From Planctomycetota bacterium (GTDB lineage Bacteria > Planctomycetota > SZUA-567 > H5-PLA8): 11,687 nt of DNA. A program made the translations under genes and the position numbers. Shown here piece after piece: positions 1-11,687 of the stretch. Under the pieces are notes generated by a model that was given only the letters and a program-made list of their open reading frames with translations, had not been told where the DNA came from and made no database searches. Positions within the stretch are counted from its first letter, which is position 1, and each line of letters starts with the position of its first letter. The stretch lies in assembly GCA_038227875.1 (NCBI GenBank), contig JBBRPR010000115.1, forward strand, positions 1 through 11,687. Reading direction: 5' to 3'.

Positions 1-1
1 C

Positions 2-367
2 CAGGGACCCAAAGACACCACAAGCGCGCGTATCAATTATTTAGAAGGAGAAATGAGTCCCGATCCCATTACGCGAGTAAATAATAAAAGAGGCGCCTTT
101 AATCTCGCGCTCAATCGAGCAGAATCGCAAAATATCGTTCACGACGCGGCAGCCTTGCTCGCTGAGAATGCACTCGGTAAGGAAGAGCGGGCAAAAATAT
201 TAGATGAGGCGATGCGCGCCCATTACAACCTTAAAGAGTATGAGGCCTCACTTCAGATAGCACGAGAACTTCAAGGATATACCGGTTTACCAGCTCAGGT
301 CGCTGATGGACAAAAATTTGAAGTGATGATAAAAAATCAGGTATTTAATGATATCGAAAAGCCCTAA
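2..367 (+). CDS. 3' end of a hypothetical protein with a TPR-like helical C-terminus (probably starts upstream of the window)
   Basis: The frame is open from base 2 (QGPKDTTSARINYLEGE-M53) to TAA 365-367. The GAAGGAG before ATG53 is only 2 nt from it, too close for an RBS. The C-terminal ILDEAMRAHYNLKEYEASLQIARELQ looks like a TPR-type helix pair. Confidence 0.6.
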   Translation, partial: QGPKDTTSARINYLEGEMSPDPITRVNNKRGAFNLALNRAESQNIVHDAAALLAENALGKEERAKILDEAMRAHYNLKEYEASLQIARELQGYTGLPAQVADGQKFEVMIKNQVFNDIEKP

Positions 368-1809
368 AACGTTTTCTTTTTCTCATCCTCCGAAGGTGCA
401 GGTTTCAAGTCGTTTTGAATTTCCTTCTCTGCCGCCTTTGCTGCTTTACGGACGTTTTCACACTCATCAATTGTAGCGTCTCCTAATAGTCCCAGTGCGC
501 ATTCAGCATTTCGGCCAAAGCCACCTAACAACTCGGATACGTATTGTCTGGTACGGGGATTTCGATACTTTAAAAGATCCTTCACTTTGGATGCGATGCC
601 TTTACTATCGTGAGTTTGTTTTAAAACATTTACAGCCCACTGGTTCAAAATGTTCTCTCTGTCCTTTAGCGCCGAAATTGCTATAGTTTCAATGTCATTT
701 TCTTGCTGTGGAGACAATTTCCAATCTCGAAAGCTCTCAAACACATTGGGAATTTGAATTCGAACCAGGTCTCGGTCATCCTGCAACATTACCAAAAGGA
801 TTGATGTCGGCTCACCCCCTCTAGCCATATCTTTCAATTGATTTATATTCTGCTTAATGTTGTCCGAAAGTAGTGCGAATCGCTGTTTGTTGCCGTTCGA
901 CAACTTAGAAAAAAGTCGCGGCCTTCCGTCAAACAGCTCAGCAGCATCATACAAATCATAAATATCCTCTTTCTCAACTTCGCTTTTTAGAATCGAAATC
1001 TGTAGATCATTTCCCGGAATTTTGACCAACATTTGAATTATTTTCATTTCATGTTTTGGTTCTCGGCGACTCGAATGATACGCTTTGAGCAAGTCTCCAT
1101 ATAAGCTGGGAAAATTAGCGAGCACAGTCTGTCGATTTTCCGGTAATAGCCAAATATCCAGTGCATTGAGAAGTGTGTCTGCATATAGAGAATGGCTTTC
1201 TGACAGCCATTTTATAAGTAATCCAGCAGCCTTTGGACACCCAAATGACGAAACCGCGTAGACCACACCCACACGTTCTACGTCATCCGCGTCTTTCCAA
1301 AATGATTCAAAAAGATCAAGCATCTGGCTCTGAAGGGAAGAATTCAACAGAAGCTTAGGCTCGATCAATGACGGGATCGCGGCAATTGATGCTACACGTT
1401 GTGAGTCCGAGAAATCATAATATCTCAAAAGATGTAAAGTAAGCGTTGCACAACTGAGGTCCGCTTGCCTCCGCCGTTCGAAAATATGAACGGTTTGAAA
1501 TCTCAAAAGATAGGTGTCATTTAACTCAACATCTGCTTTAGCAAGCGAACTTTTGGTTTCCAGATCGGCCAAATGCGAAAGCTTTTCGAACTCTGTGGGA
1601 TGATTCTTCTGATACGTTAGCGCTGATATTAACCACGCGCTATCGCCATCAACCGACGATGCTCCCTGCGAAAGGTAGTGCCTAACAGCTTCCCGGTATG
1701 ACGCACCGTGTGCGATCGCAACTGAATTAATCGATACGTTCTGCTCCGCAGCCTCAATCAACGGAATACCTATCATAATTAAGGCGATCGAATGTAGCAA
1801 AATTTTCAT
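364..1809 (-). CDS. Exported HEAT-repeat (alpha-solenoid) protein, 481 aa
   Basis: Long ORF in AT-rich DNA. N-terminal Sec-type signal peptide MKILLHSIALIMIGIPLIEA|AEQ. C-terminal HEAT/PBS-lyase-like repeats (LLKYRNPRTRQYVSELLGGFG; LLGDATIDECENVRKAAKAAEKEI). Starts 22 nt after the PAD stop. Confidence 0.8.
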   Translation of the reverse strand: MKILLHSIALIMIGIPLIEAAEQNVSINSVAIAHGASYREAVRHYLSQGASSVDGDSAWLISALTYQKNHPTEFEKLSHLADLETKSSLAKADVELNDTYLLRFQTVHIFERRRQADLSCATLTLHLLRYYDFSDSQRVASIAAIPSLIEPKLLLNSSLQSQMLDLFESFWKDADDVERVGVVYAVSSFGCPKAAGLLIKWLSESHSLYADTLLNALDIWLLPENRQTVLANFPSLYGDLLKAYHSSRREPKHEMKIIQMLVKIPGNDLQISILKSEVEKEDIYDLYDAAELFDGRPRLFSKLSNGNKQRFALLSDNIKQNINQLKDMARGGEPTSILLVMLQDDRDLVRIQIPNVFESFRDWKLSPQQENDIETIAISALKDRENILNQWAVNVLKQTHDSKGIASKVKDLLKYRNPRTRQYVSELLGGFGRNAECALGLLGDATIDECENVRKAAKAAEKEIQNDLKPAPSEDEKKKTF

Positions 1810-1831
1810 GGTACACCCTGAATCAAGATTA

Positions 1832-3889
1832 CTAGTGTTTCTTTAATGGTTCTCTTACCACATTTGTCAGACAATGCAATTCCCCGCCGCCCGCATATGG
1901 CCCGCTCGCGTCAACCAAAATTGGAATAATGAAGTCCGGTTTATACGAGTTCGTTCCTGCTATAATGCTCTTAAATTTCTCATCAAAATCCGGCAATCCC
2001 GGTCCACCGATTGTGGCACCAGCTCCCGCATTCGCGGGATAGAAAAATACAAGATCGCCGCTGGATCCCGGAAAAACGATCGGCTGAGAATTGTTGTAGT
2101 CATGCGTTAATTGGGATTCCTTAACGAACATTCCTTGCTGGATTGCAGGGGGATTTCGAATTAGCACGGGCGTGCGAGTGACGCTGGCCGAAATTGGAGC
2201 CGTAGAAAGGGTGCTAACAATTTTAGTGTACACTGAGTCCACTAAAGTTAACTCCTTTCCAAGATCAGTCGTAGCGACAATTGCAGCTTGAGCATCTTTA
2301 TAAGTTTTGAAATTGATTACACTCCCAGGGCCATCAAATGTGGTTCCGGGAGCAACGGCATTTATAACCTGCGACGCGCTATTCGCACCATAATTCGCCG
2401 AAACAAACATGGTGAACCCGCCTTTATTATCGAGCGGGACCACTGTTGCAATCTCATCAATGTGGCCCACTCCAATTCCTGAAGGATCCAGCGTTACCAG
2501 TGCATTCGACGACAGCGTCTGAACCTTTTGTCGAAGAAAGAATTTTACAGCTGTGGTGTTTGCCCTTGTCGTCATTATGTAGCCGTATGGATGCGCTGTG
2601 TCATTCTTAATTGGCGGCAAAACTCCGTATGCCCCCCCTTCATCACCAGCTTGCGCCGAAATAAAATACCAACCAGAGTTGGCGCTTAGTTGCTCCTTAT
2701 CCCACTCACCTAATCCATTCAGTCGACCAAATACGTGCAAAACACTTTCTTTGCTGGGATCTTTGGAAATTTTTCGACAAAATCCAATGATTGTTCGATC
2801 CTGCGAAAAATCCTCTTCGCCATTTGCCTTGGCCTTTATAACTCCTTTTGCCAATTTCTTATTATTAATAATATTTTCCTGAATGGAATCGTGGAATTGT
2901 TCCCCATTATGAGCCCAATCGGAATAAAAAAAGTTAAATTGCACATCAGTAGCAATAGGTTGGGTGTTCGGAATTGCTATAAACGGTACACATAGTAAAA
3001 CAACCGAGCTAGTAAAGGCGGACTGAGGGAATGTCGGCGCCTGGGCAGCCGTATTTTCGACAACCGTTAGGGTGTATTTAACTTGTTCGCCGAATTTTAA
3101 TCCTTCAGCGAGAAGAATGTGCTTTTTACCATCCTTTAAAATATCTGTTACGTCGACAGAAAGGTTTTTCTGATTAGGGCCGAGCAGCATTTTTGCATCA
3201 CCAAGCTTCTTTTCAACATGACCACTTTCTTCTAATTGCAAAACTGGTTCAGCTGCGTCGCTTGGTATGTGAAATACTCGGCTGAGCTGATTTGCGTCAG
3301 AAATCGCTTCTGGACCTTTATCCACCGTTAGAAGAACTTTATTATATTTATAAAACGTATCTGAAATCTTCGGAAGCTCAATTCTTAACTCCGACAAATT
3401 TTTAACATCATCCTTCCCGTTAATAATATCATCATCCATATTGGTTTCAGAAGATTTGGCGTGAGTACCCGTTTGTCCACAATTCACCATTAATAATGCT
3501 CCATTTTTCAGATAGTCCACCGGATTCGACTTGCCTTGAATATCATCGTCCGTAATGACTCCGTCTCGATTCGTATCGGCAAGAATTGATAACCGAACAA
3601 GAGTTACGATGGTCTTTACATCGGTTTTTCCAGTTCGCACTGCCACCACTCTTGCACCATTTGCAGCACTTATTATTATTGGAGCGCCGGCTTTGAATCC
3701 TGGGACACCTTGTTTGAATTGAAATTTTGCTACTGCGTTATTAAATTGAAGAACGCCATCGGAGCTCGCGGTGAAATTTCCTAATGCGGGCACAGGAAAT
3801 TGAGGATTGGGAACTAATGCCTCTTTAATTGCGGTCGCGATTTCTTTTGGTTGTTTAATATCAACCTTCGAGCTTAACACAATCAGCAT
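1832..3889 (-). CDS. Protein-arginine deiminase (PAD, animal/cyanobacterial type: PAD middle domain plus catalytic pentein domain) with an N-terminal beta-rich segment; possibly 5'-truncated
   Basis: Motifs are collinear with human PAD4: SILADTNRDG (3560-3589), GALLMVNC (3479-3502; PAD4 GAILLVNC), FSQD (Asp at 2798-2800; PAD4 WMQD350), GDEGGAYGVLPP (PAD4 LDSFGNLEVSPP), VGHIDE (2453-2470; H471/D473) and GGELHCLTNVVREP (Cys at 1871-1873; PAD4 HGEVHC645GTNVRRKP). ATG at 3889 gives 685 aa, but the AT-rich open frame continues to a junction near 3979, so the start is uncertain. Confidence 0.9.
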   Translation of the reverse strand: MLIVLSSKVDIKQPKEIATAIKEALVPNPQFPVPALGNFTASSDGVLQFNNAVAKFQFKQGVPGFKAGAPIIISAANGARVVAVRTGKTDVKTIVTLVRLSILADTNRDGVITDDDIQGKSNPVDYLKNGALLMVNCGQTGTHAKSSETNMDDDIINGKDDVKNLSELRIELPKISDTFYKYNKVLLTVDKGPEAISDANQLSRVFHIPSDAAEPVLQLEESGHVEKKLGDAKMLLGPNQKNLSVDVTDILKDGKKHILLAEGLKFGEQVKYTLTVVENTAAQAPTFPQSAFTSSVVLLCVPFIAIPNTQPIATDVQFNFFYSDWAHNGEQFHDSIQENIINNKKLAKGVIKAKANGEEDFSQDRTIIGFCRKISKDPSKESVLHVFGRLNGLGEWDKEQLSANSGWYFISAQAGDEGGAYGVLPPIKNDTAHPYGYIMTTRANTTAVKFFLRQKVQTLSSNALVTLDPSGIGVGHIDEIATVVPLDNKGGFTMFVSANYGANSASQVINAVAPGTTFDGPGSVINFKTYKDAQAAIVATTDLGKELTLVDSVYTKIVSTLSTAPISASVTRTPVLIRNPPAIQQGMFVKESQLTHDYNNSQPIVFPGSSGDLVFFYPANAGAGATIGGPGLPDFDEKFKSIIAGTNSYKPDFIIPILVDASGPYAGGGELHCLTNVVREPLKKH

Positions 3890-3978
3890 GTATGTGACGC
3901 CCTTTTCAGAAGGGTTAGTGTCATTAACACCAATAGTGAATACGGGACCCTCAAGGCTATCGGAACTTGGATCTTCGG

Positions 3979-4098
3979 CAGCGGCGTCAGCCCGTCCTCG
4001 TCGAGCGCGTTGACCTGCGCGCCACGTCCGAGCAACAACTTGATCAGTGGAAGTTTGCCGCCGCGCACTGCGTAGTGTAACGCTATTGAATCGAATGA
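3979..4098 (-). pseudogene. Orphan ankyrin-repeat fragment
   Basis: Translates as SFDSIALHYAVRGGKLPLIKLLLGRGAQVNALDEDGLTPL, a textbook ankyrin repeat (ALHYA...G...LIKLLL..GA.VN..D..G.TPL). It is preceded by an in-frame TGA (4099-4101) and similarity stops abruptly after TPL. Confidence 0.8.
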
Positions 4099-4120
4099 TC
4101 AGTCGGGCTCTGCTCTTAGG

Positions 4121-4606
4121 GGCGCGTACATTCGCGGCATCGCGCGCAAGAGCATCAAGATTTCGCCGAAGTATGCGCCGCCTGGAAAACCGCCGCGCTC
4201 GCGCAAAGGACGCCTGAAGGACGCGATCATCTTCGCGGTGGAGAAAAAACAGCAGCGCGTTGTCGTTGGCCCGACGGCAACGGAAGTCGGGCAGATCGGA
4301 CGAACACACGAGCAGGGCGGCACCGAACCGCCGAAAACGAAGAAAGCCCGGAACCCCAACTGGAAACTTGAGGTCGGCGGTCACGGCCCCGTTCGAAACG
4401 ACACGAACGGGGTTGGATTCGCCAAGTTGGAAACGGAAGCCCAGGTCGAACGCGCAAAGAAGATCGCGCCAGCCGTTCAGGCTAAAGAAGCGCAGGCCAC
4501 GGCGCAGACCAAGTCTCGAAAGTACCCTCCGCGCCCGTTCATGGGACCGGCATTCAACATCGCCAAGGAACGCTTGCCCAAGTTGTGGGCAGGCTCGGTG
4601 AAATAA
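4121..4606 (+). pseudogene. 5'-truncated HK97 gp10-like tail completion/neck protein
   Basis: The basic coding frame extends upstream of the track's GTG4238 to GAYIRGIARKSIKISPKYAPPGKPPRSRKGRLKDAIIFAVE and ends in the typical YPPRPFMGPAF motif; HEQGG resembles the family's 'EFG' motif. There is no start codon between TAG 4073 and 4121. It lies directly before the major tail gene. Confidence 0.7.
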
Positions 4607-4621
4607 GAGGAGACCACGACC

Positions 4622-5086
4622 ATGAGTGCCAAACTCGGCATGCAAGCAAAGCTCTACCGCCTCACCGCAGGGGTGCGCGGCGCGTGGCCCGGTTCGGGCG
4701 CGCCCGCGAATCTCGTCGAACTGGGCAACGTGAAGGACGTGACGCTCAATCTCGAAACCGGAGAAGCCGACGTAACGACCCGCGCCAACAGCGGGTGGAA
4801 AGCGACCATCGCCACATTGAAGGAGGGCAGCCTTGAGTTCGAATCCATCTGGGACCCCAGCGACGGCGGGTTCTCCGCGCTCAAGGACGCCTACTTCAAC
4901 AACACACCAGTCGCGTTGGCCGTTCTGGATGGATCGAAGGACGTTGTCGGATCGCAAGGACTGTGGGCGGACTTCAGCGTGACGAATCTCACACGCGAAG
5001 AGCCGCTCGAAGATGCCATCAAGGCCAAGGTCACGCTCAAGCCGACGTACTCGGCCATTCCGCCAGCGTGGGTCACCGTCGCGTAA
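4622..5086 (+). CDS. Phage major tail (tube) protein, 154 aa
   Basis: RBS GAGGAG 4607-4612. Tail-tube-like motifs NVKDVTLNLETGEADVTTRANSGWKATIATLKEGSLEF and FSVTNLTREEPLEDAIKAKVTLKP. Sits immediately before the chaperone and tape measure genes. Confidence 0.85.
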   Translation: MSAKLGMQAKLYRLTAGVRGAWPGSGAPANLVELGNVKDVTLNLETGEADVTTRANSGWKATIATLKEGSLEFESIWDPSDGGFSALKDAYFNNTPVALAVLDGSKDVVGSQGLWADFSVTNLTREEPLEDAIKAKVTLKPTYSAIPPAWVTVA

Positions 5087-5125
5087 CACGGGTCCATCTT
5101 GGAATCGACTCTCACGGAGGAACAG

Positions 5126-5608
5126 ATGCGCACTTTCAAAGACACCGCAGGCCGCACGTGGACGTTGCAGATCAATGTCGACGCCATCAAGCGCGTTCGC
5201 GGTCTGCTGAACGTCGATCTGCTGGAGATCGCAGACGGCAAGCTCATTGAGCGGCTGGCAGGCGATCCGGTTCTGCTCTGCGATGTCGTCTTCGCCATCC
5301 TCAAGCCCGACGCGGACGCACAGCAAGTCTCCGACGCCGACTTCGGACGCGCGATGGGCGGCGACTGTCTGGAACAGGCCACGACCGCCTTCTTAAAGGA
5401 GCTGGCCGATTTTTTCCCCTCGTCGAAGCGCCAGGTGCTGCACCTGGCGCTGGCCAAGCTGCGGGAGGTGGATGCCAAGATCGTGGCACTGGCCGAGAAG
5501 AAGCTATCCAGCCCGGCGCTCGACGCGCGGATCAATACTCTGCTCAAAGACTTTGGCGAACCATTTACGAGCTCGCTGGAATCGTTGGCTGTCCACCCGG
5601 TCAGTTGA
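5126..5608 (+). CDS. Tail assembly chaperone (lambda gpG analogue), 160 aa
   Basis: RBS GGAGG 5116-5120 precedes ATG5126 (MRTFKDTAGRTW...), a better start than the track's TTG5099. Located between the major tail and tape measure genes, with an overlapping -1 frame ORF. Confidence 0.8.
   Translation: MRTFKDTAGRTWTLQINVDAIKRVRGLLNVDLLEIADGKLIERLAGDPVLLCDVVFAILKPDADAQQVSDADFGRAMGGDCLEQATTAFLKELADFFPSSKRQVLHLALAKLREVDAKIVALAEKKLSSPALDARINTLLKDFGEPFTSSLESLAVHPVS
5395..5451 (+). promoter_or_regulatory. Candidate programmed -1 ribosomal frameshift signal
   Basis: SD-like AAAGGAG 5395-5401. In-frame slippery heptamer T TTT TTC 5410-5416. Perfect inverted repeat AGCGCCAGGTGC-T-GCACCTGGCGCT 5427-5451. 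The -1 frame is open from 5251 to TGA 5845-5847. Confidence 0.7.
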
Positions 5609-5847
5609 CCTTGCGCGAACTGCTCTGGATGGCGGAAGCGCGCAGCAAATCGGAATGGGGCCGCGCGTCGGCGCTGCTCGCGCTCATCGCAAACGTGAAT
5701 CGTGATCCGAAGAAGGGCGCTGCGTTCACCCCTTCGGATTTCAATCCGTATGAACGCAAAAACACGGACGTGCCAGTCACGAAGCTAACCGATCTTAGCA
5801 TTCTGAAGTCGGTCTTCGTGGACCGGCACTTGGGAGGAAAAACATGA
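5605..5847 (+). CDS. Tail assembly chaperone C-terminal extension (gpT analogue), probably expressed as a -1 frameshift fusion with 5126..
   Basis: -1 frame relative to the chaperone, with only a weak TTG start and no clear RBS. Protein-like sequence continues upstream of the TTG (LWRTIYELAGIVGCPPGQLTLRELLWMAEAR). Confidence 0.75.
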   Translation: MTLRELLWMAEARSKSEWGRASALLALIANVNRDPKKGAAFTPSDFNPYERKNTDVPVTKLTDLSILKSVFVDRHLGGKT

Positions 5848-6056
5848 GTGAAGAAATCATTCCGGTGAAGCCGGGATACCAGACCACGGAGTTTTGGCTC
5901 TCGGTAGTGGCGCTGCTCTTGGGTCTGGCGCTGGCCAGCGGAGCGGTCCACGACGGAGGCCTCGCTGCGCAGATCATCGGCGGCGTTCTGTCGGTGCTCT
6001 CCAGCCTTGGCTACACGGCATCGCGCACGAAAGTCAAGAGCGCGGGAGGTGAATGA
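5844..6056 (+). CDS. Putative holin, 70 aa, two transmembrane helices
   Basis: RBS GGAGG upstream and ATGA overlap. KPGYQTTEFW motif followed by two hydrophobic segments (FWLSVVALLLGLALASGAV; LAAQIIGGVLSVLSSLGY) and a basic C-terminal tail. Confidence 0.65.
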   Translation: MSEEIIPVKPGYQTTEFWLSVVALLLGLALASGAVHDGGLAAQIIGGVLSVLSSLGYTASRTKVKSAGGE

Positions 6057-6233
6057 ATGAGTCTGATCGTGCAGGCGGTGGTGGGCATCATCGGGATGCT
6101 CATCGAATTGTTCATCCCCAATTCTGTGGAGGTCGCCCGTGAAGTTCATGACAAAGCTGCTCCTTCTTCTGACGTTTACGCTCAACCTTCCCGGTTGCGC
6201 CGTCTCTGCTTCCCGCCCCTTGAAGACGAATGA
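6057..6233 (+). CDS. Small membrane-anchored protein, 58 aa, candidate inner-membrane spanin (Rz-like); absent from the ORF track
   Basis: Strong RBS GGAGGT 6045-6050, 6 nt before ATG6057. Sequence MSLIVQAVVGIIGMLIELFIPNSVEVAREVHDKAAPSSDVYAQPSRLRRLCFPPLEDE has an N-terminal hydrophobic helix and one C-terminal Cys. It fills the gap after the holin. Confidence 0.65.
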   Translation: MSLIVQAVVGIIGMLIELFIPNSVEVAREVHDKAAPSSDVYAQPSRLRRLCFPPLEDE

Positions 6234-6429
6234 AATCACGTGGGCGAAGATGGGCACGCCGGCGCGCATCGTTGACGAGCAGAAAGTTAAAGTGCTGGTT
6301 CCAGATGGGAAGGGCGGGTGGACGCCCGGAAGGGGCAATCTCGCCGGCATGGTCGCCATCGACGAGCCGACGCTGGATTACTACCGCACCGTCGACCGCA
6401 AGCAGCCCCTGCCGGAGCCTAAGAAATAG
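6139..6429 (+). CDS. Lipoprotein, 96 aa, candidate outer-membrane spanin (Rz1-like)
   Basis: RBS GGAGGT 6128-6133, 5 nt before GTG6139. Signal peptide MKFMTKLLLLLTFTLNLPG-C with lipobox-like LPGC. Begins out of frame inside 6057..6233 (95-nt overlap). Confidence 0.65.
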   Translation: MKFMTKLLLLLTFTLNLPGCAVSASRPLKTNEITWAKMGTPARIVDEQKVKVLVPDGKGGWTPGRGNLAGMVAIDEPTLDYYRTVDRKQPLPEPKK

Positions 6430-8439
6430 ATGGCCTCCGCATCGGGTATTCGCGCCGGGCTTGCGTACATCGAACTGTACGCCAACGACGCCCGGCTGGT
6501 CAAAGGACTGAACGCCGCCGCCGCGAAGCTCAAAGCATTCGGGGCGGCCGTGCAGGACATTGGCACGAAAATGTCGCTGGCCGGAGCGGCTATTGTCACG
6601 CCGCTGCTGGCCAGCGCCAAGTCGTTCTCCGATGTCGGTGACGCACTCGACAAAATGTCGGCGCGCACCGGCATTTCCGTCGAGGCATTATCTGAGATCG
6701 GATTCGCTGCCGATCAATCCGGTACGTCGCTGGACGACGTGGAAACCGCCGTACGCAAAATGCAGAAGACCATCGCGGCGTCCGCGGGCGGATCGAAGCA
6801 GGCGATAGCTGCGTTGGCAGAGTTGGGACTTACTGCGGAGCAGCTTCTACGGCTATCCCCGGAAGATCAGTTCACGGCCATCTCCAAGCGACTATCGGAG
6901 ATCTCCGATCCGGCATTGCGCGCGGCCGCGACAATGAGTGTCTTCGGAAAATCTGGCACGGCACTGACGCCCCTGATCGGCGATCTTCAGTCGCTACGCG
7001 CCGAAGCACAGGCGTTGGGATTTACGATGTCCACGGATGCGGCCAAAGCCGCCGCCGCGCTCAACGATGCATTCGGGCGCGTGAAAACTGCCGTGCAGAC
7101 GGTCGCAAACGCCATTGGCGCAGCCCTGACGCCCCTCCTTATAGATGTCTCAAACCAGATCGTGGCAGTTTTGGGCGACATTCGCCGCTGGATTAACGAA
7201 AACAGGGGGCTGATTGTCTCCGCGCTAAAAATCGGCGCGGTGGTAGCTGTCGCTGGAGCCGCCCTGGTTGGATTGGGTGTCGCTCTTGCAACCGCAGGCT
7301 CAATCATTGGCGGCATTGTGTCGGGCATCACGGGTGCCATTTCAGCAATCAGCACCGCCATCACCATCGTCACGTCTTTAGGCCCCATCTTGGCTGCCGC
7401 CGCGTCCGGCATCGCCGCTGTTTTCGGCGCGATCATCACGCCAGCGGGAATCGTCATCGCGCTGCTGATCGGCCTCGCAGCGTATGGAATCTACGCTTCC
7501 GGCGTGGTGGGGCAGGCGCTGGATTACCTCGGCGCGCGATTTGACGACCTCAAAAGCGTCGGAATGGAGTCCCTGCAAGGGATCAAAGATGCCCTGGCGG
7601 CGGGCGATATTTCTTTGGCCGCGCGCATTCTGTGGCTGTCGCTCAAAGCCGCATGGCAGAAGGGCATCTTCGAGCTCAATACCCTCTGGTTGGGCTTCAA
7701 AGAACAGTTCCTGTCCGTCGCCACGGGCGCATTCTACGGAGCCGTCGCGCTCGTCGCCGAAGCGTTCTATGGTTTGAGAACCATTTGGACGCAGACCATC
7801 AACTTCTGGTCCGATGTGCTCGACCGGTTTGCCGGGTTCTTCGTCAAGACCTGGAACGAACTCACCGGCTTTCTCGCCAAACAACTCACCGAACTTGAGG
7901 GCACGTTCGACTCGTCGATCAACGTTACGGCCATCAATAAACAGATCGACCGGGAAACGCAGCAGAAAAATACTCAGGTCTCGCGCCAAAATCTCGACGC
8001 GCGAGTGGGACGCGAAGCGGATTTGCAGGGTATCGAGCAGGAGCGCAAAGGCGTCATCTCTTCCATCGCCGAGATGGCGGGGAAAGAAGATGCCCAGCGC
8101 CGTGCGAAATTTGCGGCCGAACTGACCGACTCCGAAAAGGCGCTCGAAGAGGCGCGCGGCGAATGGAAAGCTGCAATTGAACAGGCGCGCACGCAACGAT
8201 CCGCCAAAGAAACAGAATCAGCCAACCGTGCTCCACTGCCCGAAATCAATCTTCCGGACATCACGCAGCGCGCGCAGTCCGTGCTCGACGTGAGCGGCAC
8301 ATTCAACACTTCAGCCATCGCTCAACTTGGTGTCGGCAGCACCGCGACCGAGCGCACGGCAAAAGCATCCGAAGAGACTGCACGAAACACGAAGCGCATC
8401 ATTCAAAAAATGGACGAAGAAGGAGCGACCTTCGAATAA
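6430..8439 (+). CDS. Phage tail tape measure protein, 669 aa
   Basis: Ala/Gly-rich helical protein with N-terminus IRAGLAYIELYAND and TMP core motifs (LDKMSARTGISVEALSEIGFAADQSG, LSPEDQF, VFGKSGTAL). It has a central hydrophobic stretch and a coiled-coil C-terminus ending ERTAKASEETARNT. Confidence 0.93.
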   Translation: MASASGIRAGLAYIELYANDARLVKGLNAAAAKLKAFGAAVQDIGTKMSLAGAAIVTPLLASAKSFSDVGDALDKMSARTGISVEALSEIGFAADQSGTSLDDVETAVRKMQKTIAASAGGSKQAIAALAELGLTAEQLLRLSPEDQFTAISKRLSEISDPALRAAATMSVFGKSGTALTPLIGDLQSLRAEAQALGFTMSTDAAKAAAALNDAFGRVKTAVQTVANAIGAALTPLLIDVSNQIVAVLGDIRRWINENRGLIVSALKIGAVVAVAGAALVGLGVALATAGSIIGGIVSGITGAISAISTAITIVTSLGPILAAAASGIAAVFGAIITPAGIVIALLIGLAAYGIYASGVVGQALDYLGARFDDLKSVGMESLQGIKDALAAGDISLAARILWLSLKAAWQKGIFELNTLWLGFKEQFLSVATGAFYGAVALVAEAFYGLRTIWTQTINFWSDVLDRFAGFFVKTWNELTGFLAKQLTELEGTFDSSINVTAINKQIDRETQQKNTQVSRQNLDARVGREADLQGIEQERKGVISSIAEMAGKEDAQRRAKFAAELTDSEKALEEARGEWKAAIEQARTQRSAKETESANRAPLPEINLPDITQRAQSVLDVSGTFNTSAIAQLGVGSTATERTAKASEETARNTKRIIQKMDEEGATFE

Positions 8440-9224
8440 TGGCTGGCCAGCTGATCGAACTTTTCAACAGCCGTACTGAAATCTCAGGCGACAAGCCGTC
8501 TGCCGAGTTTCAGTATGTTGCGCTGCAGTGCGCGGATGAGAATGAAGTCCGCACGCTGGCTTATTCAACGTCGCCAGCCGCTTATAGTGGATTGATCCGG
8601 CGCTCCGTAGAAATCTCGGAACGATTGGCGAACGATACATGGAAAGTCGTCGTTCGTTATGACGCGCCGCAGCCCTATGAAGACACGACACCGCAGCCGG
8701 TGTTCTCGTTCGATTCCACGGGCGGCACGCAGCACATCACGCAGAGCATTCAAACCATCAATCGCTACGGCCCATCGGCGTCCACGTTGCTTGGCGGTGC
8801 CATTGGCTACGACGGCGAGAACGTCGCGGGCGTCGACATCACGATCCCTGTCTGGAACTGGCAGGAGACGCACTACCTCACGGACGCCCAGCTCAACACG
8901 CCTGCATACTACGCATTGACCGGCATGGTCAATTCCGATGTGTTCGAAGGCTATCAGCCTGGCGAAGTACTGTTCCTCGGCGCGTCTGGCCAGAAGCGGG
9001 GCGACAGCCGCTGGGAAGTGAACTTCAAATTCGCCGCGTCACCCAACCAAACCGGCATAAGCGTCGGCACCATTACGGGAATCTCGAAGTGGGGATGGGA
9101 CTACCTGTGGGTGCAGTACGGTGAAGACGTGGACAACACGGCCAAAATTCGCATCAAGAAACCCATCGCCGTTTACGTCGAGCAGGTCTACGACGTAGCC
9201 CCGTTCTCCATCCTGGGGATATAG
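8439..9224 (+). CDS. Phage tail-tip protein (distal tail/hub position), 261 aa
   Basis: TAATG-coupled to the tape measure gene. Beta-rich and aromatic-rich (FSFDSTGGTQHITQS, GEVLFLGASG, KWGWDYLWV). Function inferred from position only. Confidence 0.7.
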   Translation: MAGQLIELFNSRTEISGDKPSAEFQYVALQCADENEVRTLAYSTSPAAYSGLIRRSVEISERLANDTWKVVVRYDAPQPYEDTTPQPVFSFDSTGGTQHITQSIQTINRYGPSASTLLGGAIGYDGENVAGVDITIPVWNWQETHYLTDAQLNTPAYYALTGMVNSDVFEGYQPGEVLFLGASGQKRGDSRWEVNFKFAASPNQTGISVGTITGISKWGWDYLWVQYGEDVDNTAKIRIKKPIAVYVEQVYDVAPFSILGI

Positions 9225-9225
9225 C

Positions 9226-10098
9226 TTGAAAAAAGTTGCGTCGGGACAACCACTGCGTATTCCCGCATCCACGTTCAACACGATGGTGGACGCGGCGAGC
9301 GATTTTCAGCGGCGCTCGCTCAATCGTGGCTCCAGTGCCGTGCCGCCTGACACCAAAAATGGCATCATCATTGTTCGCAATCAGTCGGGATCGGATCGTG
9401 ACCGTTTCGATGTGCTTGGTCTATCGACCGTCATCATCACGCCGACACAAAACGCGCAGAAGTTCGCCAGCCGCTGGGCGCTCAACGCGGCGCTTCCCGC
9501 CGCCACACACACTGGCAAGTTCGCGATTCTACAGGAGCCCATCAAGAGCAACGCTTTTGGACTCGCGATGATTGTCGGCGTTTCGCCGGTCTACGTCACG
9601 CGACCGACGGGAGAAACGTCTGAAATCGCCGGTCTCAAGGTAGGGCAAACCTATCTTGAAGCCGGTCTCACGGGCGCGCAGATTTTATGGGAGGATTCGG
9701 GGGGAACGACGCCGCATCTGGCATTGGTGCGCATGCCTGCCGCACTTGATCTGACGATCATCCGCATGCGCGTTACTTCGGTGCAGGGCGATTATCTTGT
9801 CTGCCAACGTTGGACCGGTTCTGCGTGGTCGGCAACGAATGAAAACGTCGTCAAGCCCTATCTGCTGCGCACGTCCGGCACGTCGCGCAACGGCATTACT
9901 TACGTCTACTCGAATGGTTTCACGCGAACGGCGACGCAGGGCGCCAGCAACGAGACACAGGTCATCGTGCCATCGTACTACACCTCCGGCGACGAGGTCT
10001 TCGCCGCACCCGTGAATTACACCGGTGTGGTAGTGGCAACGAACGAACTCAAGCTCGTCGATATCAACGCCGACGGCCGCGCGTGGGCGAAACAGTAA
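9226..10098 (+). CDS. Phage tail-associated structural protein, 290 aa
   Basis: TTG start 1 nt after the previous stop, with GGGGA 6 nt upstream. Coding-like codon usage. Apparent two-domain beta-rich protein ending DINADGRAWAKQ. Confidence 0.7.
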   Translation: MKKVASGQPLRIPASTFNTMVDAASDFQRRSLNRGSSAVPPDTKNGIIIVRNQSGSDRDRFDVLGLSTVIITPTQNAQKFASRWALNAALPAATHTGKFAILQEPIKSNAFGLAMIVGVSPVYVTRPTGETSEIAGLKVGQTYLEAGLTGAQILWEDSGGTTPHLALVRMPAALDLTIIRMRVTSVQGDYLVCQRWTGSAWSATNENVVKPYLLRTSGTSRNGITYVYSNGFTRTATQGASNETQVIVPSYYTSGDEVFAAPVNYTGVVVATNELKLVDINADGRAWAKQ

Positions 10099-10754
10099 TG
10101 GCGACACCATTCGACTCATTCAACCGCAGCCCATTGGATGCGTTCATCCAGAGTCCGCTGCTGGCGCGCGGCGCACCTTCTGGCGGATCGTTCAGCCGCA
10201 CGGCGGCGCTTTCGTTCGCGATCACGCCGACGCCCAGTTACGTGAAATACCCTCAATACTCGCTCTTTATTCCGAGCACGCGGTTCATTCAGCGCTACCA
10301 GAACAGCGGCGGGTCGCTGGTCTTTCTCGATGAATTCACACTCGCCGGCGGCGGCGACATGCTCGTTGGCGCGGGGAAGAGCGGCACGCTCTGGCGGATT
10401 GAACGTGCGCGTACCAGCGTGGCGACAGTTCCCGCCAGCGCGCCTGCAAGCGCGTACTGGCGCGTCCGTGTGCGGGCATCCAATCCGCCGAACGGAATCG
10501 CCGCCGATATTTACATGGCTCACGAGTCGTCGGCATGCACATTTAATGGTCCCGCATCCGGCTGGTATCTCGGCAAGGCAATTCCCAACGTGGACAACTA
10601 CTTCAATCCTGGCGCGCTCATTCCGGGCCAGCGCTACTACCTTTTCTTCCAGGGCGAGAACGACTGGTCTTACATGAACATTTCGAACACGCAGTTCTAC
10701 CAATTCCATGCCAGCAACGACGGCACGGCCATCCGTTTGGAGACTTTCATATGA
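10098..10754 (+). CDS. Hypothetical tail-tip protein, 218 aa, possible receptor-binding/variable module
   Basis: TAATG coupling puts the start at 10098 rather than GTG10083. The stop overlaps the next gene (ATGA 10751-10754). Aromatic-rich beta-type C-terminal region. Confidence 0.65.
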   Translation: MATPFDSFNRSPLDAFIQSPLLARGAPSGGSFSRTAALSFAITPTPSYVKYPQYSLFIPSTRFIQRYQNSGGSLVFLDEFTLAGGGDMLVGAGKSGTLWRIERARTSVATVPASAPASAYWRVRVRASNPPNGIAADIYMAHESSACTFNGPASGWYLGKAIPNVDNYFNPGALIPGQRYYLFFQGENDWSYMNISNTQFYQFHASNDGTAIRLETFI

Positions 10755-11236
10755 TCGGCTTCGGTCTTCGCGGGATGTTCAAGCTGAAGCATTTTCGCTC
10801 CGGCGTGTTGATTGCCGAGCACGCGTTCCCAAACGCCGTCGTGGATCTTGGTGCGAATCTCCTGCTTGAGACGATGTTTCGTGGGGCCGCGCAGCGGAAT
10901 TGGTACATCGGGCTGATCAATAGTGGGCTCATATTGAACAATGCCGACACGATGGGTTCGCACGCAGGTTGGACAGAGCTTGCTGCGTACTCGGAAGGCG
11001 CGCGACCGCAGTGGATCGTGAATAATCCGGCGGCAACTCGGCGGCTCGTCAACGCAGGGCCCGATGCAGGCATCTTTCACTTCACGGCGGCGGCAACACT
11101 GGCAGGCGCGTTCCTATCGGACGATGCCACGAAGGGTGGATCGGCGGGCGTGCTTTTCTGCACGGCAACTGTCACAAGTCTAAGCTTGGTGGCTGGCGAT
11201 GCGGTGACGGTCAGTTATCAATTGCAGATCACTTAA
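10751..11236 (+). CDS. Phage minor tail/tail-fibre-associated structural protein, 161 aa
   Basis: Recognisable phage structural family pattern: N.VV..G.N.LL...F, WYIGLI, ADTM.SH.GWTE...Y...RP.W, GAFL.....KGG..GVLF, GD.VTV.Y. Confidence 0.75.
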   Translation: MIGFGLRGMFKLKHFRSGVLIAEHAFPNAVVDLGANLLLETMFRGAAQRNWYIGLINSGLILNNADTMGSHAGWTELAAYSEGARPQWIVNNPAATRRLVNAGPDAGIFHFTAAATLAGAFLSDDATKGGSAGVLFCTATVTSLSLVAGDAVTVSYQLQIT

Positions 11237-11476
11237 TGCTGGACCGAGCCGCACCGAACTAATAGCGCCTGATTGCGCCTGCCCATGTACAAACACGCTG
11301 CCGTACAACCGCTCTTCACCGCTGGAAATTCCACTGGGATCGTTCGCGGTTGATACGTTCGTGCGTGGCAAGAGGACGGCGAAACGCTGCCGACGAACGG
11401 CTCCGTCTGGCATCCGCCGTCATCGAACGAAAACACAGGCAACCTCTACTTCGATTTCAAGGTGTACTATGATTGA
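11236..11476 (+). pseudogene. Probable degraded (deleted/frameshifted) tail gene
   Basis: The coupled ATG at 11236 stops after 8 codons. One frame reads TELIAPDCACPCTNTLPYNRSSPLEIPLGSFAVDTFVR and another continues WQEDGETLPTNGSVWHPPSSNENTGNLYFDFKVYYD-TGA 11474-11476, overlapping the next start. This is the only large gap in an otherwise tightly packed operon. Confidence 0.5.
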
Positions 11477-11687
11477 TTGCGTCTCAATGGCAGGCGTCTT
11501 TTGTGTGAAGCACATCCGTGACGGCGTAGTTCTTGCTGAGCATGAGCTGCGCAACGCGATCACGAACGTCGGCAAGACCGACATGCTCAATGACTACTTG
11601 GGCACCGGGGGCCTCGCTGGCGGTCAGTGGTTCTTCGGGCTGATTGACAACGCCGCCTTCAGCAGCACCAACGTCGCAGACACGCTC
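11469..11687 (+). CDS. Partial phage structural protein, paralogue of 10751..11236 (runs off the window)
   Basis: AAGGTG then ATG11469: MIDCVSMAGVFCVKHIRDGVVLAEHELRNAITNVGKTDMLNDYLGTGGLAGGQWFFGLIDNAAFSSTNVADTL. It aligns with MIGFGLRGMFKLKHFRSGVLIAEHAFPNAVVDLGANLLLETMF...WYIGLINSG...NADTM. Confidence 0.8.
   Translation, partial: MIDCVSMAGVFCVKHIRDGVVLAEHELRNAITNVGKTDMLNDYLGTGGLAGGQWFFGLIDNAAFSSTNVADTL

Follow-up and report, generated by a model that had tools for sequence, protein, structure and literature searches.

The window, that is, the whole 11,687-nt stretch of Planctomycetota DNA that was analysed, carries two adjacent minus-strand genes, one for a putative protein-arginine deiminase (PAD) and, directly downstream, one for a putative exported HEAT-type partner. 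A prophage module of the siphovirus type lies beside this cassette, as context and outside it. The features are as follows.

2..367 (+): incomplete ORF (121 aa) that runs off the contig start, convergent with the partner gene, AT-rich; its stop overlaps the partner stop
364..1809 (-): partner gene, 481 aa; signal-peptide-like start, helical repeats, weak HEAT_2 match at residues 378-457
1810..1831 (-): 22-nt spacer between PAD stop and partner start, with a weak AGGGTG Shine-Dalgarno-like motif
1832..3889 (-): PAD gene, 685 aa; N-terminal region of ~97 aa, PAD_M and catalytic PAD, without signal peptide
1835..3016 (-): PAD catalytic domain; D364 (QD), H476-x-D478 (GHIDE), C673 (ELHC)
3089..3598 (-): PAD_M (middle, Ig-like, calcium-binding) domain; Pfam, 34.3 bits in the genome scan
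3599..3889 (-): N-terminal ~97 residues of PAD, fold unknown, matching no family
3890..3972 (-): end of the AT-rich DNA, ahead of the PAD start; either a short leader or what is left of a lost 5′ coding part
3973..4068 (-): ankyrin-repeat gene fragment, ~30 codons in a frame that differs from that of PAD; Ank_4, 23.1 bits
4120..11687 (+): truncated prophage tail module with genes for tail completion, major tail protein, tape measure and distal tail, and with chaperone-like ORFs

The minus-strand PAD ORF ends at the TAG at 1832-1834, and the ATG at 3889, the first start codon within the AT-rich DNA, gives the 685-aa protein from whose Met residues are numbered here. The frame stays open as far upstream as 5326, only because it runs antisense to GC-rich phage genes. 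The original prediction placed an animal-type PAD domain at the C-terminus, and Pfam searches bear this out: both PAD_M (PF08527; 31.7 bits, cut-off 24.8) and PAD (PF03068; 34.9 bits, cut-off 25) matched above cut-off, the latter over only the first half of the profile. A phmmer search of the PDB matched human PAD4 (E 4e-7), and in that alignment QD, GHIDE and ELHC fall on the active-site motifs of PAD4. Across an alignment of 43 sequences, D364, D478 and E479 never vary, and H476, H672 and C673 almost never do; judged from this alignment, the catalytic Asp/His/Asp/Cys set is kept. The enzyme had also been set apart from the Porphyromonas PPAD/agmatine deiminase type (PF04371), which we take to share with it the modification of guanidino groups by means of a catalytic cysteine. 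This distinction holds, since Pfam gives only PAD and PAD_M at E ≤ 0.01 and no PF04371. The window PAD is strongly diverged: its nearest relative (locus L142) is 27% identical (pairwise E 3e-38), identity to anything found is at most 27-30%, and in the tree it occupies a long branch within a 10-row set of mostly metagenomic proteins.

The beta-rich, "Ig-like" N-terminal region that had been noted is mostly PAD_M, followed towards the N-terminus by the ~97 residues without a match; PAD_M is standard in PADs, and this region is no toxin-delivery module. For the ~97 residues, neither Pfam (PAD_N included, at E ≤ 0.1) nor the ESM-Atlas gave a match. All phmmer matches to the protein start at query residue 81 or later, and among 1.84 billion representatives the first ~80 residues have no homologue, with or without another toxin domain, which counts against an N-terminus shared with interchangeable toxins. 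Moreover, the window PAD has no signal peptide and no trafficking domain, and the export signal carried by related PADs is missing, so this copy may no longer be exported.

The partner was expected to be a signal-peptide HEAT-repeat protein encoded 22 nt downstream, and its ORF does open at this distance from the PAD stop, with the ATG at 1809. Since the spacer is short, contains the AGGGTG motif and shows no terminator-like site, the two genes are probably co-transcribed. Both inspection by eye and a simple hydrophobicity rule mark the partner N-terminus, MKILLHSIALIMIGIPLIEAA, as signal-peptide-like (residues 1-23, about 1741-1809), which leaves the window copy with a compartment mismatch between an exported partner and a PAD that lacks a signal. 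The HEAT_2 match (24.6 bits, E 3e-5) is under the Pfam cut-off of 27.7, and in the ESM-Atlas each of the ten nearest clusters belongs to a HEAT family (best score 0.94). A sequence search found no homologue of the partner. It scores -0.7 bits against a 16-sequence partner-family profile, is undetected at E ≤ 100 by the N-terminal partner profile described below (genome-wide search), is not among the HEAT_2 matches of its genome at E ≤ 1e-4, and by BLASTP has no similarity to the partner at L142. Because the family profiles miss it and HEAT_2 falls below cut-off, we assign it to the partner family by position and protein class.

The AT-rich island and the prophage neighbour are both as originally described. 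GC is 0.40-0.47 across 1-3980 and about 0.60 beyond, against 0.596 for the genome; the PAD and partner genes themselves are at 43-44% (genome 59.6%), and the cassette lies 15 GC points under its genome. That such AT-rich DNA keeps ORFs of 2 kb and 1.4 kb intact, and that these match families, goes far beyond chance. The convergent ORF at 2..367 matched no family, and 3890..3972 yielded no promoter-like site. Matches to tail genes fall within 4238-8439: the tape measure, the major tail protein and, weakly, tail completion. The ankyrin fragment, which the PAD 5′ end abuts, is 78% identical at the nucleotide level to a segment of an ankyrin gene (543 aa) that lies on another contig (C19) of the same genome, and on this match we read it as a recombination scar. 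Three other metagenome runs contain related phage DNA that matches the window from 4120 rightwards only; to the left of that point it continues with another sequence. The junction is no artefact of assembly, since an independent Logan contig of 4101 nt, which may stem from the source sample, covers 1771-5871 with zero mismatches. The window copy was probably acquired horizontally, and the 5′ export or carrier part of its PAD was probably lost at the junction near 3973-4120.

Conservation of the neighbourhood had been suggested as a check on the pair, and the pair is indeed conserved. PAD is present in 39 of 401 Planctomycetota genomes. At 23 of the 30 loci examined (a count that includes L034, added from the partner-profile search), an exported ORF starts about -60 to +65 nt from the PAD stop; the other seven have no partner. 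HEAT_2 matched at E ≤ 4e-4 in all 13 partners tested, eight of them above cut-off, and at E from 1.7e-11 to 0.018 in five further ones. Exclusivity was assessed with a profile of the N-terminal 175 positions of the partner in the same 401 genomes. It matched 21 genomes, all PAD-positive, and none that was PAD-negative; all 22 strong matches lie directly beside a PAD match. The 401 genomes hold no orphan partner genes, unlike what is seen for classic immunity genes. Exported HEAT-type neighbours also accompany diverged PADs (L013, L014, L017, L132, L133, L134 and L137) as well as the nearest relative, L142, and at eight of nine diverged loci the cassette has a lower GC than its flanks.

Outside Planctomycetota, the partner follows PAD at 18 of 79 loci, in Myxococcota, Acidobacteriota, Gemmatimonadota, Gammaproteobacteria and one cyanobacterium, and a well-supported 39-row PAD clade that includes Nostocales, Actinomycetota and Paenibacillus lacks it. 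Among relatives, PAD_M-PAD is a C-terminal module found behind lipoprotein signals, in giant HYR/PKD/cadherin proteins and on a Mu-gp43-like tail protein. The export signals of enzyme and partner co-vary: lipoprotein PADs pair with signal-peptide partners, while the partners of two PADs fused to the Mu-gp43-like protein are ~205 aa long and have no signal peptide. Between related PADs, the partner diverges beyond recognition. Collectively, these comparisons of gene order argue that PAD and the exported HEAT protein behind it form a conserved two-gene module, recurring across phyla, and because the layout recurs in this way the window PAD and its partner are very likely a cognate pair. No description of the module was found in the literature searched.

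Our best explanation, held tentatively and as one joint reading, is that the window PAD is a protein-arginine deiminase of the animal/bacterial PF03068 family and that its partner is a binding protein serving as a compartment-matched, immunity-like inhibitor. The enzyme would convert peptidyl-arginine to citrulline with release of ammonia. The HEAT protein, translated from the same transcript, would share the compartment of the enzyme, bind it and stop it from citrullinating the producer's own envelope proteins until its release or delivery. That the two proteins bind each other, that the partner inhibits and that the enzyme acts on extracellular proteins is our inference; the inhibitor role is likened to that of the potempins, which are exported, co-encoded and producer-protecting.

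Linkage, exclusivity and co-localisation fit an inhibitor, an activator, a chaperone or a targeting subunit alike. Accordingly, this same evidence agrees equally well with a second reading, rather unlikely in our view, in which the pair is cognate and the HEAT protein is no inhibitor; it would be a chaperone or export helper, a substrate-recruiting scaffold, or an activator of a surface deiminase, with modification of, or nitrogen harvest from, extracellular proteins as one possible role. A strict 1:1 pairing in which no partner stands alone is seen more typically for subunits than for immunity genes, solenoids of the HEAT type serve as binding scaffolds in general, and there are carriers with adhesin-like Ig, PKD, cadherin and HYR domains. 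However, many PAD clades function without such a partner, the cyanobacterial and human enzymes are active alone according to PMC8826395, and the divergence of the partner between related PADs suggests an interface under diversifying pressure.

The toxin/immunity layout of the original prediction survives in part: the pair is very likely cognate, long carriers of very different kinds end in PAD_M-PAD, export signals run in step, and Imm-HEAT is a recognised immunity class according to PMC3482391. A full inter-bacterial polymorphic toxin system, with PAD as an effector into competitors, the HEAT protein as immunity and the window copy as an orphan C-terminal module off its carrier, appears improbable. 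It would suit the low GC of the cassette, the PAD 5′ end at the scar, and the two genomes with a carrier of Mu-gp43-like (DNA_circ_N), OmpA and PG_binding domains, one of which has a tail-sheath gene 6 kb upstream on the same strand. Likewise, one related genome (G018) encodes, near its PAD, an 886-aa protein whose N-terminal part is similar to that of the PAD (pairwise E 1e-5); the C-terminus of this protein differs, and it has a small exported partner of its own. The window PAD, in contrast, has no trafficking domain, the search of 1.84 billion representatives gave no protein that joins its N-terminus to another toxin domain, the 401 genomes hold neither orphan nor arrayed partner genes, and the family consists mostly of ordinary lipoproteins of constant architecture. 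No PF03068 enzyme is shown to be toxic in the literature searched, and deiminases go unmentioned in the portion of the polymorphic toxin catalogue text covered here (PMC3482391).

Incidental adjacency, with a PAD that acts on a distal substrate (e.g., a ribosomal peptide, as citrulassin) or is a decaying, non-exported relic beside an unrelated exported HEAT-like protein, is very improbable: the partner does fail every homology test against its family, the PAD carries no signal for export, the locus is a rearranged junction next to a prophage and Streptomyces offers a precedent for distal substrates (bioRxiv 10.1101/2020.07.16.207027), but chance would very rarely put a HEAT-type gene 22 nt behind PAD where HEAT_2 amounts to 102 stretches in 62 frames of a 9.3-Mb genome, the same layout is found at the eight diverged loci named above, both ORFs are intact in AT-rich DNA, and a second PAD fragment of the same genome (C81) is also followed by an exported protein, with a 4-nt overlap.

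Among known systems, the window PAD resembles the two-domain (PAD_M + PAD_C) bacterial/fungal and three-domain cyanobacterial/animal PADIs (PF08527, PF03068), for which human PAD4 structures such as 1WD8 and Cummings et al. 2021 (PMC8826395) are the references. It has PAD_M, a C-terminal catalytic domain with Asp/His/Asp/Cys, a length near that of animal PADIs and partly kept calcium-site motifs (DTNRDG, DDDIING). It differs in its low identity, the half-covered PAD profile, the undetected PAD_N and the dedicated downstream HEAT partner; the main text of PMC8826395 mentions no HEAT partner, operon, neighbourhood or synteny. The Streptomyces PAD that, according to Harris et al. 2020 (bioRxiv 10.1101/2020.07.16.207027), puts citrulline into the distally encoded lasso peptide citrulassin belongs to the same Pfam family and has proven peptidyl-arginine deiminase activity. 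The same source calls the gene contexts of 837 bacterial PADs "highly diverse" and reports that PAD gene GC tracks genome GC, whereas the window has a fixed partner and strongly deviant GC.

Polymorphic toxins with Imm-HEAT/Imm-ank, among whose listed immunity classes are HEAT repeats (Zhang et al. 2012, PMC3482391), share the C-terminal enzyme domain, the fast-evolving repeat-protein gene directly downstream, atypical GC and, in relatives, varied N-terminal carriers; they differ in trafficking domains, N-termini shared with alternative toxins and poly-immunity or orphan immunity loci. By analogy only, the proposed pair would resemble KLIKK-peptidase/potempin operons of Tannerella forsythia, where a secreted enzyme is co-transcribed with an exported specific binder that shields the envelope. 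According to PMC9890683, potempins are co-encoded, exported lipoprotein inhibitors that protect the producer from its secreted KLIKK peptidases; in that system the enzymes are peptidases and not a deiminase, the inhibitors are small beta-barrel lipoproteins and not a HEAT solenoid, and the inhibitor gene lies upstream rather than downstream. With the exported lipoprotein PAD and secreted HEAT module of Planctomycetota and Myxococcota, the window shares gene order, strand, tight spacing, an exported partner of helical repeats that are of HEAT type towards the C-terminus, and a G-x-x-Y-x-x-x-[RV] stretch ~15 residues past the partner signal peptide (by eye, post hoc). Unlike that module, its PAD has no lipoprotein signal and its partner, missed by the family profiles, has 481 aa against about 340-390 aa. 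The window would hold a very diverged local copy of a widespread, unstudied gene pair, maybe an enzyme and its own inhibitor.

The two genes considered here lie side by side at the left of the window, next to phage DNA, in the following arrangement.

1 to 3980: AT-rich island, holding both genes
2 to 367, plus strand: partial, convergent ORF of 121 aa in AT-rich DNA, matching no family, its stop overlapping that of the HEAT gene
364 to 1809, minus strand: 481-aa HEAT-type protein, the candidate partner, directly downstream of the PAD gene
1832 to 3889, minus strand: PAD protein of 685 aa, ending in a TAG stop
3973 to 4068, minus strand: ankyrin-repeat fragment of 30 codons, between the phage and the PAD start, in a frame that differs from that of PAD
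4120 to 11687, plus strand: phage tail module

The window is an entire contig of 11,687 bp (C115) from a genome 9.34 Mb long (176 contigs, 88% complete, 59.6% GC). The ATG at 3889, from which residues are numbered, is the first start codon within the AT-rich DNA. Upstream of this codon the PAD frame is open as far as position 5326 only through lying opposite GC-rich phage genes, and a gene call of 1085 aa, whose extra 400 residues are antisense to these genes, was dropped. Profile searches bear out the original prediction of a PAD-type enzyme. The PAD family (PF03068) is matched with 34.9 bits, above the Pfam gathering score of 25, the match covering profile positions 3 to 214 of 395 alone, that is, the first half of the profile. 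Ahead of this catalytic domain, PAD_M (PF08527) is matched with 31.7 bits against a cut-off of 24.8; on the genome scan the two families score 29.9 and 34.3 bits, respectively. They are the sole Pfam families at E ≤ 0.01, and PF04371 (PAD_porph/agmatine deiminase) is not matched, in agreement with the view that the enzyme is distinct from the Porphyromonas PPAD/agmatine deiminase type. NCBIfam and PHROGs gave nothing for either the PAD or the HEAT-type protein.

The best solved relative is human PAD4 (E 4e-7), and the window motifs QD, GHIDE and ELHC align with the PAD4 active-site motifs QDE, GHVDE and EVHC. The catalytic residues of PAD4 we take to be D350, H471, D473 and C645; in an alignment of 43 sequences, D364 and D478 (window numbering) are invariant and H476 and C673 nearly so. 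The calcium-site motifs are partly kept, the consensus N-x-DDD reading NCGQTG in the window protein. Calcium-dependent deimination of peptidyl-arginine is the activity of the family and is putative for this member. Residues 1 to about 97/98 match no Pfam family at E ≤ 0.1, PAD_N included; no Pfam domain lies upstream of PAD_M, and an Atlas search with the first ~97 residues was without a match. By Pfam, the cupredoxin-like PAD_N domain of the three-domain (animal and late cyanobacterial) PADI is thus not detected in the window protein. Moreover, it begins MLIVLSSKVDIKQPK and has no signal peptide according to the crude rule by which signal peptides were called throughout.

A word-indexed homologue search returned the query alone, for PAD and for the HEAT-type protein. 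Of 1.84 billion representatives searched exhaustively with phmmer, 49 proteins passed E ≤ 1e-3, the query among them; the best foreign match has 75.7 bits and 29% identity. All 48 foreign matches are PAD proteins in which PAD_M-PAD is C-terminal and the preceding part varies (TSP3, Calx-beta, cadherin and Ig domains, or DNA_circ_N together with OmpA and PG_binding). An N-terminus shared with interchangeable toxin domains, as had been envisaged, did not emerge: the first 80 residues of the query lie outside the best matched stretch in all 48, these stretches beginning at residue 81 or later. A metagenome scan gave a closer relative, L142 (27% identity over residues 118–684, pairwise E 3e-38). 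A quick maximum-likelihood tree with an arbitrary root, built from 116 PAD_M-PAD regions, places the window PAD on a very long branch (1.37) within a 10-row set (SH-aLRT 99) that also holds eight metagenomic proteins and the PAD of a genome of the same family; long branches meet there. The branch of the window PAD and L142 is at the edge of detection by the Pfam PAD model, and surveys based on PF03068 therefore undercount it.

Which genes accompany PAD genes was followed in 401 sampled Planctomycetota genomes, 39 of which have PF03068. At 22 of the 30 PAD loci examined, a script picked out an ORF on the same strand whose start lies about -60 to +65 nt from the PAD stop; these 22 ORFs have a signal-peptide-like start and a common G-x-x-Y/W-x-x-x-R motif. 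Locus L034, added from a search with a profile of the partner N-terminus, raises the count to 23 of 30, and to this extent the neighborhood is conserved. Downstream of the remaining seven lie a GH26 gene (two loci), a UvrA-like gene (two), nothing (two) and an unclear ORF (one). HEAT_2 was found at E ≤ 4e-4 in all 13 partners tested, in eight of them above the cut-off, and five further partners gave Pfam E values from 1.7e-11 to 0.018. Most PADs of this 30-locus survey start with a lipoprotein-type signal. The N-terminal partner profile (175 positions) has matches in 21 of the 401 genomes, every one of them PAD-positive; all 22 strong matches (E ≤ 8e-34) are directly beside PAD. Save for one further match of 27 bits elsewhere, no mainstream partner copy was found away from PAD in the 401 genomes.

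The pairing extends to diverged PADs. An exported ORF with HEAT_2 follows the PADs of L013 (at least 897 aa; 21.4 bits), L014 (2,057 aa, with HYR, PKD and Big_7 domains; 57.6 bits) and L017 (33.1 bits). Exported ORFs with HEAT_2 likewise stand after L132 (at least 1,661 aa; 35.1 bits), L133 (34.2), L134 (22.3, plus HEAT_PBS 27.8) and L137 (52.7), and the exported ORF after L136 matches nothing in Pfam. The PAD of L142 bears a signal peptide, and its exported partner (HEAT, 28.4 bits) overlaps it. In this PAD gene (L142, 2428–4548) Pfam finds PAD_M only at E ≤ 0.01, and the motifs H-A-D-E and E-T-H-C are kept. Partners of diverged PADs share 15–22% identity with the window partner and among themselves; the HEAT_2 background in the window genome amounts to 102 stretches in 62 frames over 9.3 Mb. 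In eight of nine diverged loci, the GC of the cassette falls below that of the flanking DNA. No HEAT partner accompanies the four PADs with Arg in place of His before the catalytic Cys (L015, L016, L131 and L135). This Arg-variant subgroup of Planctomycetota reads GGARCGTN or GGPRCGTN, and one member is followed by a prepilin-type (N_methyl) protein.

In the window itself, the TAG stop of PAD is followed by a 22-nt spacer and by the ATG at 1809 that opens the 481-aa protein on the same strand. No terminator-like site was found in the spacer, and a promoter/terminator scan of the window did no better than on shuffles. Spacing, strand and signal-peptide-like start (by eye and by a simple hydrophobicity rule) agree with the predicted exported HEAT-repeat gene, while the repeat assignment is sub-threshold (HEAT_2, 24.6 bits, E 3e-5, below the cut-off of 27.7). 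The nearest Atlas clusters are HEAT families in ten cases out of ten (best score 0.94), at a recognition value below the usual level. Against the full partner-family profile the protein scores -0.7 bits, in the genome search with the N-terminal profile it is unlisted at E ≤ 100, and BLASTP finds no match to the L142 partner. Since family profiles and BLASTP miss it, its assignment to the module rests on position and class. A G-x-x-Y motif was given zero weight as support, the regular expression having been fitted post hoc. The sole match of the N-terminal profile in this genome (23 bits, contig C21) was rejected as a partner homologue, since it is a HEAT/TPR membrane protein that is unrelated and has no PAD in its vicinity; the profile is therefore not fully specific.

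Outside the phylum survey, one genome per species was scanned; this gave at least 600 PAD loci, 80 of which were kept for analysis. A partner-like downstream ORF (local profile E ≤ 1e-3 and/or HEAT_2/HEAT_PBS E ≤ 0.01) is present in 18 of 79 loci, the relative's own contig being left out and two of the 18 repeating loci of the phylum survey; a locus was scored as having no partner if no same-strand ORF of at least 80 aa with a profile or HEAT match started within 300 nt. The 18 are spread over Myxococcota, Holophagales, Longimicrobium, Gammaproteobacteria, Planctomycetota and one cyanobacterium. No partner was seen at any locus of the Nostocales type, and the tree holds a 39-row clade (SH-aLRT 100) without a single partner, made up of Nostocales, Actinomycetota, Paenibacillus, Methanophagales and Bacteroidota.

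In relatives, the export signals of partner and enzyme vary together. The partners of seven Myxococcota PADs with lipoprotein signals bear signal peptides. In Heteroscytonema (L098, 1–4800) and Longimicrobium (L091, 1–4704), PAD_M-PAD is the C-terminal end of large proteins (at least 1,568–1,600 aa) that begin with DNA_circ_N (Mu gp43-like), OmpA and PG_binding_1, and their partners, of the ~205-aa HEAT type, are without a signal peptide. The cyanobacterial PAD fusion has a Phage_sheath_1C gene 6 kb upstream on the same strand (L141, 7203–8393); it was found by Pfam on upstream ORFs, an initial sheath search having matched other contigs. This arrangement raises the possibility that a contractile-tail protein may carry the citrullinating domain there.

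In genome G018, the N-terminal 225 residues of the PAD protein resemble part of a neighboring 886-aa protein (BLASTP E 1e-5), which has a different C-terminus and a small exported neighbor of its own. The PAD protein and the 886-aa protein are each followed by a small exported protein, of 435 and 252 aa, respectively; the C-termini in this array are PAD in one gene and unknown in another. Three large genes are arrayed at this locus (L013, contig C793, 1–8943), the third being N-terminally alike by eye. The layout is like that of polymorphic-toxin systems.

As foreseen, the window cassette lies in an AT-rich island that abuts phage DNA: both genes have 43–44% GC versus 59% for the remaining contig, and the DNA to its right encodes a siphovirus-type tail module with a weak tail-completion match, a major tail protein and a tape measure. 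The final 141 nt of the window recur, without a difference, at one end of contig C147. The ankyrin fragment is 78% identical in nucleotides to part of a 543-aa ankyrin gene on another contig of this genome (L128, contig C19, 6969–8600); it is a recombination scar at the junction of island and phage and ties the window contig to this genome. An independently built Logan contig, perhaps from the source sample, spans 1771–5871 with zero mismatches, so the junction is not an artefact of one assembler. Three microbial-mat metagenome runs from other studies contain relatives of the tail module, 95–99% alike, from 4120 rightwards only, and to the left these relatives continue with a common, different sequence. 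The truncation point of the phage is thus 4119/4120, and in those samples, none of which covers the PAD island, the island does not belong to the phage. That the cassette is phage cargo was rejected, as related phage DNA elsewhere is without it and diverges exactly at 4120. At the other end, the partial 121-aa ORF lies in the same AT-rich DNA, indicating that the island extends beyond the contig start.

Export signals are mismatched in the window pair, the partner having a signal-peptide-like start and PAD none. Signal peptides are present in the clade relatives L142, P0008 and P0010, and the PAD start is 84 nt from the gene-fragment scar. The window PAD has probably lost a 5′ part that served as export signal or carrier. 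Both window ORFs are nonetheless intact.

The same genome contains a second PAD fragment (L003, contig C81, 12272–14984), cut by the contig end so that the C-terminal 183 aa are left. It scores 67.7 bits with PAD, lies in DNA of 44–45% GC and is followed by an exported 253-aa protein of no family (4-nt overlap) and then by a 168-aa ORF. Ahead of the matched part it reads GHVTVYE where PADs show GHVDE, and this copy may lack a catalytic Asp.

Collectively, linkage, exclusivity and matched localization make a direct physical partnership of the PAD and the HEAT protein, as judged from these genomic data, the most economical explanation. We favor the partner being a compartment-matched inhibitor, because it evolves faster than the enzyme, because PADs of other clades are active without a partner (PMC8826395) and because the PAD module is mounted on delivery-type carriers. 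That the partner is instead an accessory or regulatory subunit fits nearly as well, the computed evidence separating the two roles in no respect. A strict polymorphic-toxin system, at whose modularity only the relative in G018 hints, fails two defining tests: the window PAD has neither signal peptide nor trafficking domain, and no N-terminus common with alternative toxin domains was found for it. This reading is weakened further in that, one 27-bit match aside, no orphan genes of the mainstream partner family were found in the 401 genomes.

The inhibitor reading can be carried further, to an extension that we consider improbable. PAD-HEAT modules would then make up a new effector class, in which citrullinating enzymes are secreted or injected and each has its cognate protein inhibitor; the HEAT partners would be the first natural proteinaceous inhibitors of the PAD family, and the island a mobile, fast-evolving cassette of this arsenal. 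The deiminase, arriving as a lipoprotein or borne by giant adhesin-like carriers or by contractile-tail proteins, would neutralize arginines on envelope or cytoplasmic proteins of competitors or prey.

Animal PADs have been studied intensely in gene regulation, neutrophil traps and rheumatoid arthritis. For bacterial PAD relatives there is, to our knowledge, essentially one known role, the tailoring of lasso peptides. A dedicated, cross-phylum, compartment-matched partner would imply that citrullination outside the cytoplasm is regulated or restrained in many bacteria, and, if it is an inhibitor, would offer a natural protein scaffold that blocks PAD-family enzymes. The window shows that the pairing survives in the PAD branch that has diverged most, in which both proteins have changed beyond recognition by sequence, and it places such cassettes in DNA that is low in GC and apparently mobile, this one genome having two copies; relatives of the enzyme mount the same module on toxin-style carriers. 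Taken together, these features make a toxin/immunity-type function testable with expression and binding assays.

Our literature search gave no link of PF03068 PADs with toxins, immunity proteins, contractile injection systems or HEAT partners. The main text of two bacterial PAD surveys describes no partner (Cummings et al. 2021, PMC8826395; Harris et al. 2020, bioRxiv 10.1101/2020.07.16.207027), and their supplements may show gene neighborhoods. According to Harris et al., PAD contexts are "highly diverse" and the GC of PAD genes tracks that of the genome; the window cassette is an exception in both gene context and GC. The polymorphic-toxin catalogue includes Imm-HEAT and Imm-ank and, in the text consulted, does not mention a deiminase (PMC3482391). 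In the window pair, the candidate partner occupies the directly downstream position that the immunity gene has in polymorphic toxin systems (Zhang et al. 2012). A precedent for the co-encoded inhibitor proposed here is provided by the potempins, co-encoded inhibitors that shield Tannerella from its own secreted peptidases (PMC9890683).
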